From Klebsiella phage phiKp_30: 33,740 nucleotides of DNA. Each line of letters starts with the position of its first letter. The first letter of the stretch is position 1. Both the position numbers and the translations under genes were made by a program. Below are positions 1,092-6,270 of the stretch, one piece after another. Where the stretch lies: sequence record LC768498.2; one strand, 5' to 3'. Under the pieces are notes generated by a model. The model was not told the origin of the DNA. It saw nothing but the letters and a program-made list of their open reading frames with translations, and ran no database searches.

Positions 1092-1138
1092 CAAGATACG
1101 CCGTAAACCCTCGCCCAGTGCGGGCGGGGAGCAGTCAC
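1092..1138 (+). repeat. Copy 1 of a triplicated roughly 47-nt GC-rich hairpin element (CAAGATACGCCGTAAACCCTCGCCC-loop-GGGCGGGGAGCAGTCAC), lying between the divergent PR and PL promoters.
   Basis: The repeat is read directly. The loop is AGTGC here and GACA in the other copies, while the stem is preserved. Confidence 0.85.
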
Positions 1139-1149
1139 AACATTTTGTG

Positions 1150-1178
1150 TTGACTCGATAAAGTACATATCGTACTAT
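1150..1178 (+). promoter_or_regulatory. PL-like promoter: -35 TTGACT, a 17-bp spacer, -10 TACTAT. The spacer carries the palindrome AGTACATATCGTACT.
   Basis: Consensus-like hexamers lie upstream of nutL and N. It shares AAAGTACATRTCGTAYTAT with PR. Confidence 0.55.
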
Positions 1179-1224
1179 TTAGCCATCAGCAGGAAGCTGG
1201 AAGCCAAACGGAAAAGATTGGCAG

Positions 1225-1258
1225 GCTCTTTAACTTCGATGGGGCGCTGACAAAGCGC
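1225..1258 (+). promoter_or_regulatory. nutL: nutL: boxA GCTCTTTAAC (1225..1234) and boxB GCGCTGACAAAGCGC (1244..1258).
   Basis: As I recall it, boxB is identical to the P22 nut boxB GCGCUGACAAAGCGC and boxA matches the P22/rrn boxA UGCUCUUUAACA. The site lies between PL and the N gene. Confidence 0.7.
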
Positions 1259-1377
1259 AAACAGATACCAAACGAGATGGGTTTGGCGGTGATGTGAATT
1301 GCAGCTGCAACGACAGCAACCAGAAGATCAGCATCTGGCGCATCACCACCAAAGCCATTTCACATGAGGAAAACATC

Positions 1378-1686
1378 ATGACGGTAATCGTGTACGGAAA
1401 ATCAACATTTGCAGGAAATGCCAAAACTCGCCGTCATGAGCGGCGCAGAAAGCTGGCCATCGAGCGTGATTCCATCTGCAACATCATCGATTCGATCTTC
1501 GGCACAGACAGTGAGGAAGCTGTTCAGGAAGAACCGAGAAAGCGTTTAAGTCTTTCTGAAAAAGCAATATCACTCGGCATCATCAGTAAATCAAATACAG
1601 ATGCGAATGGCGGAAGCGTTTGTTTGCCTGAAGTTGCACTGTATGCTGCTGGTTACAGGTCAATGAAATCAATTACGGCGAGATAG
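1378..1686 (+). CDS. N: Antitermination protein N, P22 gene 24 type.
   Basis: The sequence MTVIVYGKSTFAGNAKTRRHERRRKLAIERDSI.. carries the P22 N arginine-rich motif GNAKTRRHERRRKLAIER. SD GAGGA is present. The gene is preceded by nutL and PL. Confidence 0.8.
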   Translation: MTVIVYGKSTFAGNAKTRRHERRRKLAIERDSICNIIDSIFGTDSEEAVQEEPRKRLSLSEKAISLGIISKSNTDANGGSVCLPEVALYAAGYRSMKSITAR

Positions 1687-1688
1687 AA

Positions 1689-1982
1689 ATGACTAGCAAA
1701 CAAGTATCATATAAATGCTATTGCCCTTTATGTGGAAGAAAATTCAGCGCCAAGGCAGCATGGAAGCATATCAATGATTATCATCCAAAAGCATCAGAAC
1801 GTGAGTTGATGATGATAAGAGATGTAAAACGAGAAAAAATTTCTTTCGCAACAAAGCCACTAAACGCCAACAAAAACGCAATATTGTATCAAATGCATCG
1901 TTCAAGTGGTCCAGATTATTCTGGAGGGCTTCCATCTGATTACTTACTTGATACCTGCAACATTTACAACAAGGCTGCCTGA
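1689..1982 (+). CDS. Small protein with C2H2-like zinc-finger spacing (CPLCGRKFSAKAAWKHINDYH), at the ral position.
   Basis: The ORF lies immediately after N and shows C-x2-C-x12-H-x4-H spacing. Function is unknown. Confidence 0.45.
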   Translation: MTSKQVSYKCYCPLCGRKFSAKAAWKHINDYHPKASERELMMIRDVKREKISFATKPLNANKNAILYQMHRSSGPDYSGGLPSDYLLDTCNIYNKAA

Positions 1983-2116
1983 TGGTGGCCTTTATTTTTG
2001 GCATAAACAACAGAATAAACACTGCACTGTGTATTCATTCCAACGAGTGAATACACGGAGCAATGTCGCTCGTAACTAAACAGGAGCCGACTTGTTCTGA
2101 TTATTGGAAATCTTCT

Positions 2117-2142
2117 TTGCCCTCCAATGTGAGGGCTTTTTT
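2117..2142 (+). terminator. Rho-independent terminator (GCCCTC-CAATGT-GAGGGC, then TTTTTTAT) downstream of N and orf97, equivalent to tL1.
   Basis: A 6-bp GC stem with a T6 run is read directly. A weaker hairpin with a T-run also lies at about 1969..2000. Confidence 0.6.
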
Positions 2143-2209
2143 ATATGCATACCAATAACGCTTCACTTGAGGCGTTTTCGTTATGCAATCAAACAGAAGG
2201 AGCATCCTA

Positions 2210-2379
2210 TGCAACAGTTAGCTATTGCAGGGGCGGCATCGGTTCGCCCTTTCAACCCGATTTTATCGGTGCAGCATTCACGAAAAAATATTTTAACCGG
2301 AGCAGACTTTAAACAACCAAGAATGAAAAGTTTTCTCGAAAAGCTTTGGGATATTTTGAAACAACAAGGCCGTCCATGA
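2210..2379 (+). CDS. Hypothetical small protein (56 aa).
   Basis: An ATG with SD AAGGAG lies inside ORF 2104..2379. There is no recognisable domain. Confidence 0.35.
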
Positions 2380-2439
2380 GTTTTACAGAAGAATTCATTC
2401 GTCAGATGAAAGAATTAATCGGTAACGAAGGAGATATTC

Positions 2440-4550: not shown

Positions 4551-4569
4551 CCACACCGGAGTAACAAAA

Positions 4570-4854
4570 ATGTCATCACCTCTTCATGGGGCGGATTACT
4601 TACGCCCACCAAAAGCATCAGGAAGCCGCGAAGAGGTTTTGGCGCGGTGCTTTGAGGCTATCGTAAATAACGATTACCAGACGCCAAGCATGGATGAAAG
4701 GCTAGATCGTATTTATGAAAAAACAGTTTGGGAGATGAACCTGCAGGCGAGCATGCGTCCAGGATTCGTGCCTGTTGGCCCAATGAAGCACTCGCGAGAC
4801 GACGACCGCTTTAAAGAATACAGATTCCGCCTTGGTGCCGTCAGCAACAACTAA
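4570..4854 (+). CDS. Hypothetical protein (94 aa).
   Basis: An ORF in the early-left operon with no recognisable motif. Confidence 0.4.
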   Translation: MSSPLHGADYLRPPKASGSREEVLARCFEAIVNNDYQTPSMDERLDRIYEKTVWEMNLQASMRPGFVPVGPMKHSRDDDRFKEYRFRLGAVSNN

Positions 4855-4899
4855 CCAGACGAAAAAATCACCCCCCCTATTCTCTACCGGAGAAACATC

Positions 4900-5067
4900 A
4901 TGATCGGAAGAAACTACGACCCAACCATATTCCCCGATGATTTATCAGTACGTTGCAGACAAAGAGCAATGCCGCCAAGAGATGAGTTGATGAAGCGTAA
5001 TAGCTTCCAGTCGGTTAACGAGAATAAGTTTCTGGATGCCTTGCTGAAGAAGATGAGGGTGATGTGA
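4900..5067 (+). CDS. Hypothetical small protein (55 aa).
   Basis: ATG with SD GGAG lies 8 nt upstream. It is below the ORF-track cutoff. Confidence 0.3.
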   Translation: MIGRNYDPTIFPDDLSVRCRQRAMPPRDELMKRNSFQSVNENKFLDALLKKMRVM

Positions 5068-5113
5068 TGGATTACAGCAAGCTATCAGATTTTGAAATTA
5101 ACAGGAGAGTATT

Positions 5114-5162
5114 TAGCAAGATACGCCGTAAACCCTCGCCCGACAGGGCGGGGAGCAGTCAC
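5114..5162 (+). repeat. Copy 2 of the hairpin element (TAGCAAGATACGCCGTAAACCCTCGCCCGACAGGGCGGGGAGCAGTCAC), upstream of the ant-like gene where P22 has arc.
   Basis: It is 49/49 identical to copy 3. Confidence 0.85.
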
Positions 5163-5199
5163 CGGCGAGGAATGGATTCATTGATTGGTGCGCCGGACT

Positions 5200-5234
5200 G
5201 CGCAAAAAGAAAACCGCCAGTGTGCTGCTGGCGG
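5200..5234 (-). terminator. Minus-strand rho-independent terminator (CCGCCAG/CTGGCGG stem, then TTTTCTTTTT) just upstream of the ant-like RBS. It is the candidate 3' end of a sar-like antisense RNA.
   Basis: A 7-bp stem plus T-run is read on the minus strand. A possible minus-strand promoter (GTGACA, 17 nt, TACATT) lies at about 5310..5282 and would give an RNA of about 80 nt covering the ant RBS. Confidence 0.4.
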
Positions 5235-5272
5235 CCTATGTCACACCCTTACTACCACATAAGGAATGCCTA

Positions 5273-6001
5273 ATGACTTTTAAGAATGTAGCAAACATCG
5301 GATCCGTTGTCACGGATAAAACCATTGATAGCCAGTACCTGTTAGAGATGGTCAATCATGCTCGTAGACAGTGCGGGGAAAAAGAAGTCCGAAATAACGA
5401 CTTTATTGCACGCATTAAGGATGAACTTGAAGGTGAGCACTACGAAATTTTCGTAGTTCAAAAATCAAACAAGACAACTTCTGAAAAAGTTGTTATGTCA
5501 ATTAAGCAAGCCCTTCGAGTGGCTGCTCGTGAATCTAAAGCTGTTCGCCGCTCACTTGTAGACCAACTTGAAAGTATGCAAGAAGCGCACATTAAAAGCG
5601 GTAAATCGTCGAGTGGACTTGTTGAGTATCGCCAGGCGCGAACATTGAAAATGACGGTTGAAGCTGTTACCAATCTGTTCGATCTGATGCCAAATCTTGC
5701 GCCGGAAGCAAAGCAGACTGCGGCAGCAAGCATAATCAACCCGATCGTTGGTTTTAATGCAATACCTCTTCCAGCAATAGAAGAGCATTACTACTCAGCA
5801 GGGGAGGTTGCAGAGCAGCTTGGAGTAACGGCCAACAAGATTGGTCGCATTGCTAACGCAAACAACCTCAAAACTGAGCAGTACGGTAAGTTCTTCCTGG
5901 ATAAATCGGCGCATTCCAGCAAACAGGTAGAGGCGTTCCGTTACAATTCTGAAGGCGTTAAAGCACTACAACACCTGCTACATGGCTCAAATGTGGCGTA
6001 A
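5273..6001 (+). CDS. Putative antirepressor-like protein (ant position, convergent with the mnt homolog).
   Basis: Start MTFKNVANIG.. with SD AAGGAA. Assignment as Ant rests on genomic context (mnt-like gene adjacent, sar-like arrangement). The family call is uncertain. Confidence 0.45.
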   Translation: MTFKNVANIGSVVTDKTIDSQYLLEMVNHARRQCGEKEVRNNDFIARIKDELEGEHYEIFVVQKSNKTTSEKVVMSIKQALRVAARESKAVRRSLVDQLESMQEAHIKSGKSSSGLVEYRQARTLKMTVEAVTNLFDLMPNLAPEAKQTAAASIINPIVGFNAIPLPAIEEHYYSAGEVAEQLGVTANKIGRIANANNLKTEQYGKFFLDKSAHSSKQVEAFRYNSEGVKALQHLLHGSNVA

Positions 6002-6020
6002 CATTTTATAATGAAAACTA

Positions 6021-6048
6021 AACCCGCTTAATCGCGGGTTTTTTCTTT
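6021..6048 (+). terminator. Rho-independent terminator after the ant-like gene (CCCGC-TTAAT-GCGGG, then TTTTTTCTTT). The hairpin overlaps the mnt-like stop codon.
   Basis: The hairpin and T-run are read directly. Confidence 0.65.
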
Positions 6049-6270
6049 CCTTAGAATTTCAGCCGCAACTTCTTTTACTCGTTCCGAGATTAATGAGGCC
6101 AGTCTCTCTTCTTCATCACGATACCCGCTTACAGGTGATGGTTTGGAGAGTGATTCTTCCATCGTAGCCACAATTTCGGAATTGATAGACCTGTTATTCA
6201 TTTTTGCACGCTGCTTAATCTTAGCAAGATACGCCGTAAACCCTCGCCCGACAGGGCGGGGAGCAGTCAC
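6028..6270 (-). CDS. mnt: Mnt-like ribbon-helix-helix repressor homolog (N-terminal region replaced or encoded by hairpin element copy 3).
   Basis: Compared with my recollection of P22 Mnt (RSMNSELLQIVQDALSKPSPVTGYRNDAERLA), the sequence ..KIKQRAKMNNRSINSEIVATMEESLSKPSPVSGYRDEEERLASL.. is very similar. The expected N-terminal beta-strand region is instead TAPRPVGRGFTAY, encoded by the repeat element. The GTG start at 6270 has no SD, while the ATG at 6201 would lack the beta-strand. Confidence 0.55.
   Translation of the reverse strand: MTAPRPVGRGFTAYLAKIKQRAKMNNRSINSEIVATMEESLSKPSPVSGYRDEEERLASLISERVKEVAAEILRKEKTRD
6222..6270 (+). repeat. Copy 3 of the hairpin element, overlapping the 5' end of the mnt-like ORF.
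   Basis: It is identical to copy 2 over 49 nt. Confidence 0.85.

Follow-up and report, generated by a model that had tools for sequence, protein, structure and literature searches.

Hairpin Units in Klebsiella Phage phiKp_30 as Probable Collapsed Ends of an IS609-like Insertion Sequence at Breakpoints of Lysogeny-Control Genes

The genome sequence of Klebsiella phage phiKp_30 (LC768498.2, 33,740 nucleotides; this whole stretch is called the window below) contains three copies of a 46–47-nt hairpin unit. Our analysis indicates, with a probability of about 85%, that these units are collapsed remnants of an IS609-like insertion sequence (IS) of the IS200/IS605 family, left at the breakpoints of lost or reshuffled lysogeny-control genes, and that they are not a new regulatory element. 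What the IS has lost from its interior is tnpA, tnpB, and most of the guide-RNA scaffold. A sequence-only reading of this DNA had pointed to a tripled, same-orientation hairpin with the loops AGTGC or GACA, and exact matching bears this out. The 25-mer CAAGATACGCCGTAAACCCTCGCCC has exactly three matches, starting at 1092, 5117, and 6225, where shuffled sequences lead one to expect 0, and the 17-mer GGGCGGGGAGCAGTCAC likewise has exactly three, at 1122, 5146, and 6254, with none expected by chance; all six lie on the + strand.

Anatomy of the Hairpin Unit

Copy 1 (1092..1138, + strand) is a 47-nt one-hairpin unit, or solo, composed of a left-end (LE) arm, the stem CCTCGCCC/GGGCGGGG, the LE-type loop AGTGC, and the right-end (RE) tail AGCAGTCAC. 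Copy 2 (5117..5162, +) and copy 3 (6225..6270, +) are 46-nt solos with the RE-type loop GACA and are identical to each other, and the arms are identical in all three; copy 3 lies 3' of a TTAG (6221-6224) inside mnt. When the copies are aligned together with their flanks, the similarity ends sharply at either edge of the unit. The + strand corresponds to the transposon top strand, and the order along it is TTAG just outside the unit, a 17-nt LE arm with the terminal guide tetranucleotide AAAC, the hairpin, and the 9-nt RE tail, the end of which is the right cleavage motif TCAC. The hairpin itself (CCTCGCCC-loop-GGGCGGGG) is an imperfect subterminal palindrome of 8 bp with one T.G mispair, and it is kept in 51 distinct copies. 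The window unit is the LE arm, the hairpin common to both ends, and the last 9 nt of the RE, fused into one.

The loops can be assigned to the two ends of the parent IS, as LE loops read AGTGC (found in ~20 Photorhabdus copies) or AATGC and the RE loop reads GACA. A loop AGTGC marks a collapse that retained the LE loop, and a loop GACA one that retained the RE loop. The variation of the loop, earlier read as the sign of a structured DNA or RNA element, is no evidence of selection on a regulatory hairpin; it is that between the two loop types, LE and RE, that the parent has. The window copies lack the RE-type guide GAAG and have one hairpin and the LE-type guide AAAC only, not the separate LE and RE hairpins of a functional transposon. 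Neither tnpA nor tnpB was found in the window.

Parent Element and Insertion Rule

Dozens of IMG/VR contigs contain TnpB elements that end, on the 3' side, in the 17-mer tail; scaffold precedes it there, and the right end reads ...GTGGGAAGCCTCGCCCGACAGGGCGGGGAGCAGTCAC^flank (here and below, a caret marks a junction). The scaffold is conserved among these right ends, and the flank is different for each copy. Upstream of them, two subfamilies can be told apart in IMG/VR. One contains tnpB only, is 1.31–1.32 kb long, and adjoins TCAG; the other is represented by full-length elements of 1,746 bp (L037, L047) with the LE TTAG^CGAAAAACGCCGTAAAC CCTCGCCC AATGC GGGCGGGG ATATAAGGCG. The element in L037 encodes a TnpA that is a divergent IS200-type Y1 transposase (NF033573, E = 2e-41, 141 bits against a cut-off of 55) and a TnpB, the RNA-guided nuclease (NF040570, E = 4e-102, 342 bits against a cut-off of 100). 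IS609 of Escherichia coli K-12 (1,748 bp) has the same layout, with the target TTAT and the right tail AGGATGTCAA, and its LE, TTAT^CCGGTGCGCCGTAAAA CCCCATCC TTCA GGGCGGGG ATATAAGGCG, is recognizably homologous. On a P1-like plasmid, tnpB is found between two related ends on its own strand, an upstream hairpin (...CCGCCGAGAAC CCTCGCCC AATGC GGGCGGGG AGGAAAGG...) and a downstream end (...GGGAAG CCTTGCCC GACA GGGCGGGG AGCAGTCAC).

In IS608, TnpA recognizes its cleavage sites indirectly, by their pairing with a tetranucleotide on the 5' side of the foot of either hairpin. TTAC, the left site, is 19 nt upstream of the foot and TCAA, the right site, 10 nt downstream; insertion is seamless, 3' of TTAC (PMC3201880). 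Here the corresponding distances from the hairpin foot are 17 nt (5' side) and 9 nt (3' side), and guide and flank co-vary over the 51 distinct copies in the manner of such pairing: AAAC is found with TTAG (~40 sites), AAAT with TTAA, and AAAA with TTAT, the last in two IMG/VR copies as well as in IS609. In full right ends GAAG stands opposite TCAC, in parallel to GAAT with TCAA in IS608. Insertion is seamless and 3' of TTAG, as evidenced by a filled site (FDAARGOS_943, L001) that differs from the empty site (RMDEC465, L155) by exactly 46 nt after ...gcgcTTAG^aacttaaag, with no target duplication. TTAG precedes window copies 2 and 3 as this rule requires, and copy 1 has TCAC. Finally, one locus, occupied by an element of another subfamily, holds the full IS in one sequence (L023) and a solo in another (L039), with identical flanks. 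Solos therefore form in place, the interior being lost between two near-identical stems.

Junctions of the Three Copies

In uninterrupted relatives the six flanks of the three copies abut TTAG (once TTCG), and each copy joins two non-adjacent TTAG or TTCG sites. TTAG occurs 79 times on the + strand of the 33,740 bases of the window, at 0.23% of positions, a rarity at which the three right-flank coincidences are not attributable to chance.

Copy 1 stands where a c2 gene had been expected, and it does replace a cI/c2-type repressor gene, of which only codons 1-20 are left (1028..1087, +; MKMYELARSRMKELGITQEK). A tblastn search with the cI protein of vB_EcoP-683R2 and the repressor of phage Louie aligns the N-terminal residues 1-20 only, up to window position 1087, and DNA homology to intact repressor genes stops at 1088. 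The relatives with an intact repressor (vB_EcoP-683R2, Louie) read ...CAAGAGAAGTTAG^CCGAAG... at codon 21 and, ~700 bp further on and just upstream of OL/PL, ...ATAGTTAG^AACATTTTG...; in the window the sequence is GAGAAGTCAC^unit^AACATTTTG. On the right, this is the flank canonical for the second TTAG; on the left, the flank ends at the first, itself altered to TCAC (1088..1091, +), since a relative (L013) and the sibling contig described below (IMGVR_UViG_3300045988_051161, L068) read GAGAAGTTAG where the window has GAGAAGTCAC. This TCAC is the 3'-terminal tetranucleotide of the element itself and the sole exception among the 51 distinct copies. A PL-like promoter (1150..1178, +; TTGACT, 17 nt, TACTAT) follows intact, 12 nt past copy 1.

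Copy 2 had been placed at the position of arc, but its flanks are of other origin. On the left is the stub of a small phrog_444-type open reading frame (ORF) that ends the PL operon (5064..5116, +; MDYSKLSDFEINRRVF) and is cut at TTAG (5113-5116). A full-length homologue occupies the same position in L134 and matches phrog_444; next to relatives of the neighboring Abc2-like gene only a diverged homologue of the cut ORF is seen, and the left flank has no exact match in IMG/VR. The right flank begins 22 nt before the stop codon of the P22AR/Rha gene, which in relatives precedes the antirepressor gene.

Copies 2 and 3 bracket an immunity-I fragment of 1,062 bp (5163..6224, +). It comprises the last 22 nt of P22AR/Rha (5163-5184), the antirepressor gene (5273-6001, +; phrog_1726, E = 3e-100), a predicted bidirectional terminator between that gene and mnt (6020-6041), and mnt residues 20-84 (6031-6225, −), which are 100% identical to an E. 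coli prophage Mnt. Sar-like antisense signals are predicted as a promoter-like site inside the start of the antirepressor gene (5285-5313, −) and a terminator-like hairpin just upstream of it (5211-5237, −). An Rfam search of positions 1-8000 at a permissive threshold returned only RyhB, at 5992-6047 and with 23.5 bits against a gathering score of 55; this match coincides with the bidirectional terminator just mentioned and carries no meaning.

The fragment aligns in one piece, at 99.6% identity, to the prophage of E. coli EN-1077, in which it is bounded by ...AAAACTTCG^ (CTTCG) on the left and ...AATCTTAG^ (CTTAG) on the right; phage JEP4 is colinear with it. As had been proposed, copy 3 cuts the 5' end of mnt. 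With the EN-1077-type Mnt, tblastn finds residues 20-84 only, residues 1-19 being lost and with them the DNA-binding strand of Mnt, and the Arc-domain match of the remnant is confined to positions 17-49 of the 50-position profile. The right flank of copy 3 consists of the N-terminal 18 codons of a phrog_3893-type gene (6272..6325, −; MIRRNTIAEAFRASISIN), downstream of the tailspike gene. Empty sites for this gene in pEM03-18-08_2 (L016) and in an IMG/VR contig (L107) read ...ACCTTTAG^GATTTATAGAAATGG, and also ...ACCTTTAG^GATTTATAG..., and the full gene is present in L108. In the latter, an unrelated prophage, the phrog_3893 gene is followed by an overlapping ORF (8065-8639 for the pair, 8289-8639 for the ORF) that we take, by eye, to be UmuD/LexA-like (GFPSPA...), and the pair is found at the prophage end, beside an apparent host gene of penicillin-binding-protein type.

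A Sibling Contig with the Same Insertion

All three window copies have a private 5' arm, CAAGATAC..., and elsewhere this arm is found only in the sibling contig L068: searches of 185,579 species genomes and of metagenome contigs gave no exact match, and the single one in IMG/VR is the sibling. Where the two sequences align, they are 97-100% identical across cII-cro-cI-N, apart from an insertion of ~240 bp. The sibling has the private LE arm at the same TTAG of cI, with a different deletion. Its cI locus reads GAGAAGTTAG^CAAGATACGCCGTAAACCCTCGCCCAGTGCGGGCGGGGATATACGGCGTATCTTGCTAA^AGCACACAAC..., that is, a canonical left junction, the LE loop, the LE interior, and then a fold-back copy of the arm, after which the sequence rejoins just downstream of the cI stop codon. 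The same arm at the same cI TTAG followed by different deletions implies that the IS insertion in cI is older than both genomes and that cI was then lost separately in each. At 1314-1376 the sibling has a 63-nt near-perfect palindrome (TTAG, LE arm, hairpin, ATAT, reverse complement of the arm, CTAA), which resembles the product of a fold-back template switch in the CGCC/GGCG extension of the LE stem. We also considered the motif TTAGTCAC of the sibling as an empty solo site, and this was dropped, as the window reads CCTGAGTCAC there.

The distal PL genes and the tailspike body of the sibling differ from those of the window. It has no integrase, and no element is found between its PL operon and its tailspike. 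The loss of the integrase in the window is therefore not attributable to the element.

Distribution of the Unit

With 61 nt around one copy as the query, related sequences were found in prophages and P1-like plasmids of E. coli (1,159 of 5,426 complete genomes), and further relatives of the unit occur in a Providencia phage, in the phage-plasmid RCS47, in IMG/VR contigs, and in other gamma-proteobacteria. Nearly all of these have TTAG before the unit and GTCAC at its end. Solos are rare in E. coli, with 17 records as against LE matches (at least 80% of the query covered) in 434 genomes; they are also seen in Aliidiomarina and for IS609 proper. Ordinary solos found outside the window are simple insertions, some of them within intact temperate prophages that carry an integrase. 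A link of the unit to repressor sites, for which the sequence-only reading had suggested a database search, does not hold up against this distribution. Of its proposal of a miniature mobile element, the structured nature, the origin from a mobile element, and the position at the cI/c2 and Mnt breakpoints stand; the unit is a dispersed IS relic and is not specific to repressors.

Other collapsed forms of these ends were also seen. A perfectly palindromic RE-RE unit, GTGACTGCTCCCCGCCC-loop-GGGCGGGGAGCAGTCAC, lies at 7669-7706 of L057, and an LE-LE palindrome lies at ~1427-1480 of L088 (Xenorhabdus innexi). On a P1-like plasmid (NZ_CP085065; L002, 3001-4990), a TTAA-targeted solo adjoins a hicAB toxin-antitoxin pair, which is itself directly beside a tnpB-only IS of the TCAG-targeting subfamily.

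Possible Routes and Alternative Explanations

From these junctions we infer an order of events, a responsible enzyme, and a manner in which the flanks were exchanged. An IS with TnpA, a single-strand Y1 transposase, would have inserted at the TTAG in codon 21 of cI/c2, and the IS ends would then have become joined to other TTAG or TTCG sites. The joining could have occurred by recombination between IS copies at different TTAG sites, by way of the phage Rad52/Erf-type protein or host RecA. It could also have been carried out by TnpA, which would join a cleaved RE (3'-OH after TCAC) to the 5' side of another cleaved TTAG; the TTAG target would be held by the left-end guide, everything between would be deleted or exchanged, and fewer insertions would be needed. 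We favor a mixture of the two. In the course of these events, the rest of cI/c2 would have been deleted, the N-terminus of Mnt cut off, and a promoter-less antirepressor segment placed behind the PL operon, and the bulky IS interiors would have collapsed between the 8-9-nt repeats present in both stems, LE and RE. For the TCAC of copy 1 one may speculate on an RE-to-LE joint, as in a transposon circle or a tandem pair, followed by slippage across one hairpin between GAGAAGT in cI and GAGCAGT in the right tail. As a result of the whole rearrangement, the antirepressor gene has probably lost its own promoter region and arc, and it would now lie in sense orientation behind the N-antiterminated PL operon with its sar-like antisense signals kept.

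Several points weigh against this account. The TCAC at the left junction of copy 1 is not predicted by simple insertion and deletion, and an extra step is needed; in the relative with 99.6% identity, TTCG and not TTAG precedes the right flank of copy 2. Up to six separate insertions are required for recombination between copies, and the LE-type guide AAAC of the solo does not match TCAC. "Adjacent deletions" made by TnpA did not turn up in a limited literature search and are deduced from the chemistry of IS608. No full-length parent IS with the arm CAAGATACGCCGT came up in genome, metagenome, or IMG/VR searches, and false joins at a 46-nt repeat may have arisen if the assembly was made from short reads. 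In a bolder version of the account, the one-hairpin solos would themselves be working TnpA substrates, a cleaved RE being joined to any other TTAG on single-stranded phage DNA and pairs of solos carrying the DNA between them. We consider this distinctly unlikely. If it were true, the TCAC^LE joint of copy 1 would be the fossil of an RE-to-LE strand transfer, and the case would be one of transposase-driven, sequence-addressed deletion of lysogeny genes and capture of a prophage antirepressor, by which a temperate P22-like phage became virulent.

The 46–47-nt unit might instead be an active, non-autonomous mini-element of REP- or PATE-like type, moved by a host TnpA, with pairs of minis mobilizing the antirepressor segment as a composite. 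The private 5' arm, common to the three copies and otherwise seen only in the sibling, does argue for spread within the lineage, the antirepressor segment is bracketed by two direct copies, one viral contig (L005) has two identical solos at different TTAG sites, and gene-less IS605 derivatives (PATEs) are known (PMC10055086). However, AAAC mismatches TCAC at a position that is Watson-Crick paired in IS608, so that canonical right-end cleavage is not expected, and copying of a single mini leaves the differing loop of copy 1 unexplained. The rarity of solos in E. coli relative to LE matches also speaks against it, as does the in situ collapse of a full IS that is directly seen between L023 and L039. 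The outer flanks of copies 2 and 3, moreover, are contiguous in no relative that we found; a search for a contiguous empty site of such a composite returned only the right-flank site with its own TTAG. On balance an active mini-element is unlikely. The flank swaps could also be artefacts, in which real genomes with simple insertions were joined by an assembler that crossed between identical 46-nt repeats. All rearrangement joints do fall precisely within repeats, copy 2 is identical to copy 3, the segment between them is 99.6% identical to E. coli prophage DNA, and the window ends in replication-origin iterons, like a circular assembly. Yet the sibling is independent evidence of a cI disruption by this LE arm at this very TTAG, the loop and TCAC junction of copy 1 are unique and would not be made by a repeat crossover, and the second mnt deletion (see below) is free of repeats. 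A chimera would further presuppose four identical minis, spread over two genomes, and two false paths through the assembly graph, and both the final k-mers and the reads of an assembly are usually longer than 46 nt. We regard an assembly artefact as improbable.

The hairpin could, on another view, be a selected phage regulatory element, be it a terminator, an RNA-stabilizing stem-loop, part of a small RNA, or a recombinase site. A GC-rich 8-bp stem is conserved while the loop varies, the RNA of the + strand has a G.U pair where that of the − strand has an A.C mismatch, and several other genomes have the unit immediately downstream of an opposite-strand gene. The role as a regulatory hairpin that had been suggested nevertheless finds no footing in the data, nor does that of a terminator: the tail reads AGCAGTCAC on the + strand and GTTTACGG on the − strand, with no T run and no U-tract in the RNA, promoter and terminator scans call none of the three copies, and Rfam 15 has no match at the copies at E <= 1 and none in the full-length IS of L037. 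Folding z-scores are weak (−0.9 to −2.4); the stem is stable, with DNA energy equal on both strands. Descent from IS ends fully explains the conservation, empty versus filled sites show the unit to be dispensable, and all three copies interrupt genes instead of occupying conserved intergenic positions. We therefore hold such an element to be very improbable, and the suggested role as a recombinase target is not supported either. CRISPR repeats, attC sites, FRT/lox/att scars, REP elements, and a tRNA fragment were also considered and were rejected once the IS ends had been identified. That the copies are scars from engineering a temperate phage into a lytic one is barely credible. The lost functions (repressor, mnt, integrase) are those that an engineer would remove, and the repeats are identical; but the "scar" is a natural IS end at natural TTAG-bounded junctions with differing loops, it matches, to our knowledge, no common recombinase site (FRT, loxP, Bxb1 att), a metagenomic sibling shows a different state of the same insertion, and one mnt deletion is scarless.

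Genome Context

The window is a P22-like (Lederbergvirus-type) mosaic genome of 33.7 kb. To the left of copy 1, on the − strand, is a gene for a Cro-like helix-turn-helix protein, with cII/O-like sequences farther left. The early genes on the + strand are N (1378-1686; N_peptide, E = 6.5e-37), the gene for a Rad52/Erf-type annealing protein (2619-3326), those for SSB and an exonuclease, and small early genes. From 6604 on, the − strand encodes the tailspike, ejection proteins, virion and lysis proteins, Q, the nin genes, and a primase-helicase. The two ends of the window (1-55 and 33665-33740) have short tandem repeats in common, iterons of an O-like replication gene, which suggests a circular assembly that was opened inside the origin. 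Two features lie apart from the hairpin units. A second antirepressor-type gene (Phage_pRha and ANT/KilAC domains) is present in the nin region (27753-28463, −). The 968-aa ORF of the primase/helicase (Toprim, AAA_25; 30053-32959, −) has an intein-like insert with a Hint domain at residues ~379-424 and a LAGLIDADG domain at residues 579-632, which is a second selfish element of this genome.

The normal immunity-I site (8577..8657, +) retains an Mnt-operator-like palindrome, TAGACCACGGTGGTCT, and the first 4 nt of a phage-L-type mnt, as judged from alignment to phage L. Within 8577-8890 the palindrome and these 4 nt of mnt are followed by a clean 458-bp deletion into orf62, with no scar of the element. 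Taken with the truncation by copy 3, this scar-free loss means that two different mnt genes have been lost in two different ways. The proposal that the element knocked out all lysogeny repressors agrees with the breakpoints at cI/c2 and at the N-terminus of Mnt but not with the loss of the phage-L-type mnt. The absence of a repressor and of arc from the genome, also part of that proposal, is borne out, and the integrase is missing as well: tblastn with proteins of close relatives found no integrase, Arc, P22AR/Rha, or JEP4-type second repressor in the window. With no intact repressor, integrase, arc, or functional mnt left in its sequence, the phage should be unable to lysogenize.

Relation to Known Systems and Significance

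The element family is a known one, and the one-hairpin LE::RE form together with TTAG-to-TTAG rearrangements in a phage is of modest novelty. With IS609 and IS608, of the IS605 group, the units share subterminal imperfect hairpins, seamless insertion 3' of a tetranucleotide, and the lack of target duplication, and, with IS608, a guide tetranucleotide 5' of the foot that pairs with the cleavage site at similar spacing. They differ in being gene-less, in having a single hairpin in which LE arm and RE tail are fused, and in their target and right motifs, TTAG/TCAC in the window as compared with TTAT/TCAA in IS609 and TTAC/TCAA in IS608. PATEs are non-coding IS200/IS605 derivatives that are dispersed, possibly mobilized in trans, and often encode a guide RNA (PMC10055086). 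The window unit is likewise gene-less and dispersed; unlike them, it has the LE and RE collapsed into one hairpin of 46–47 nt, with no room for a guide-RNA scaffold. PATEs typically keep separate LE and RE hairpins. Like the present unit, REP elements consist of one short, GC-rich hairpin preceded by a conserved tetranucleotide on its 5' side, and they are evolutionarily related to the ends of IS200/IS605 elements (see PMC3333891, PMC8266576). The present unit has neither a GTAG-type REP head nor a high chromosomal copy number, and the associated TnpA (L037) is not of RAYT type, as it scores 38.6 bits on the REP transposase model, against a cut-off of 80, and 141 bits on the IS200 model.

The state of the phage, as read from its sequence, may be compared with clear-plaque and virulent mutants of P22, which lack the c2 repressor and a functional Mnt and retain the antirepressor gene. 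The P22 mutants in question are of the c2-, mnt-, and virA types, the last with constitutive antirepressor. The cause here would be different, namely IS insertion and IS-associated deletion and rearrangement in place of point mutations.

For annotators of phage and plasmid genomes, the signature of TTAG, arm, hairpin, and AGCAGTCAC makes such relics recognizable. If the junctions hold on real DNA, phiKp_30 would illustrate clearly how, in nature, a single-strand transposon has reshaped the immunity regions of a temperate phage and probably blocked lysogeny. Once confirmed, this would bear on the origin of virulent derivatives and on the safety screening of "lytic" phages, and it would give a hint that IS200/IS605 ends promote deletions addressed by their target sites.

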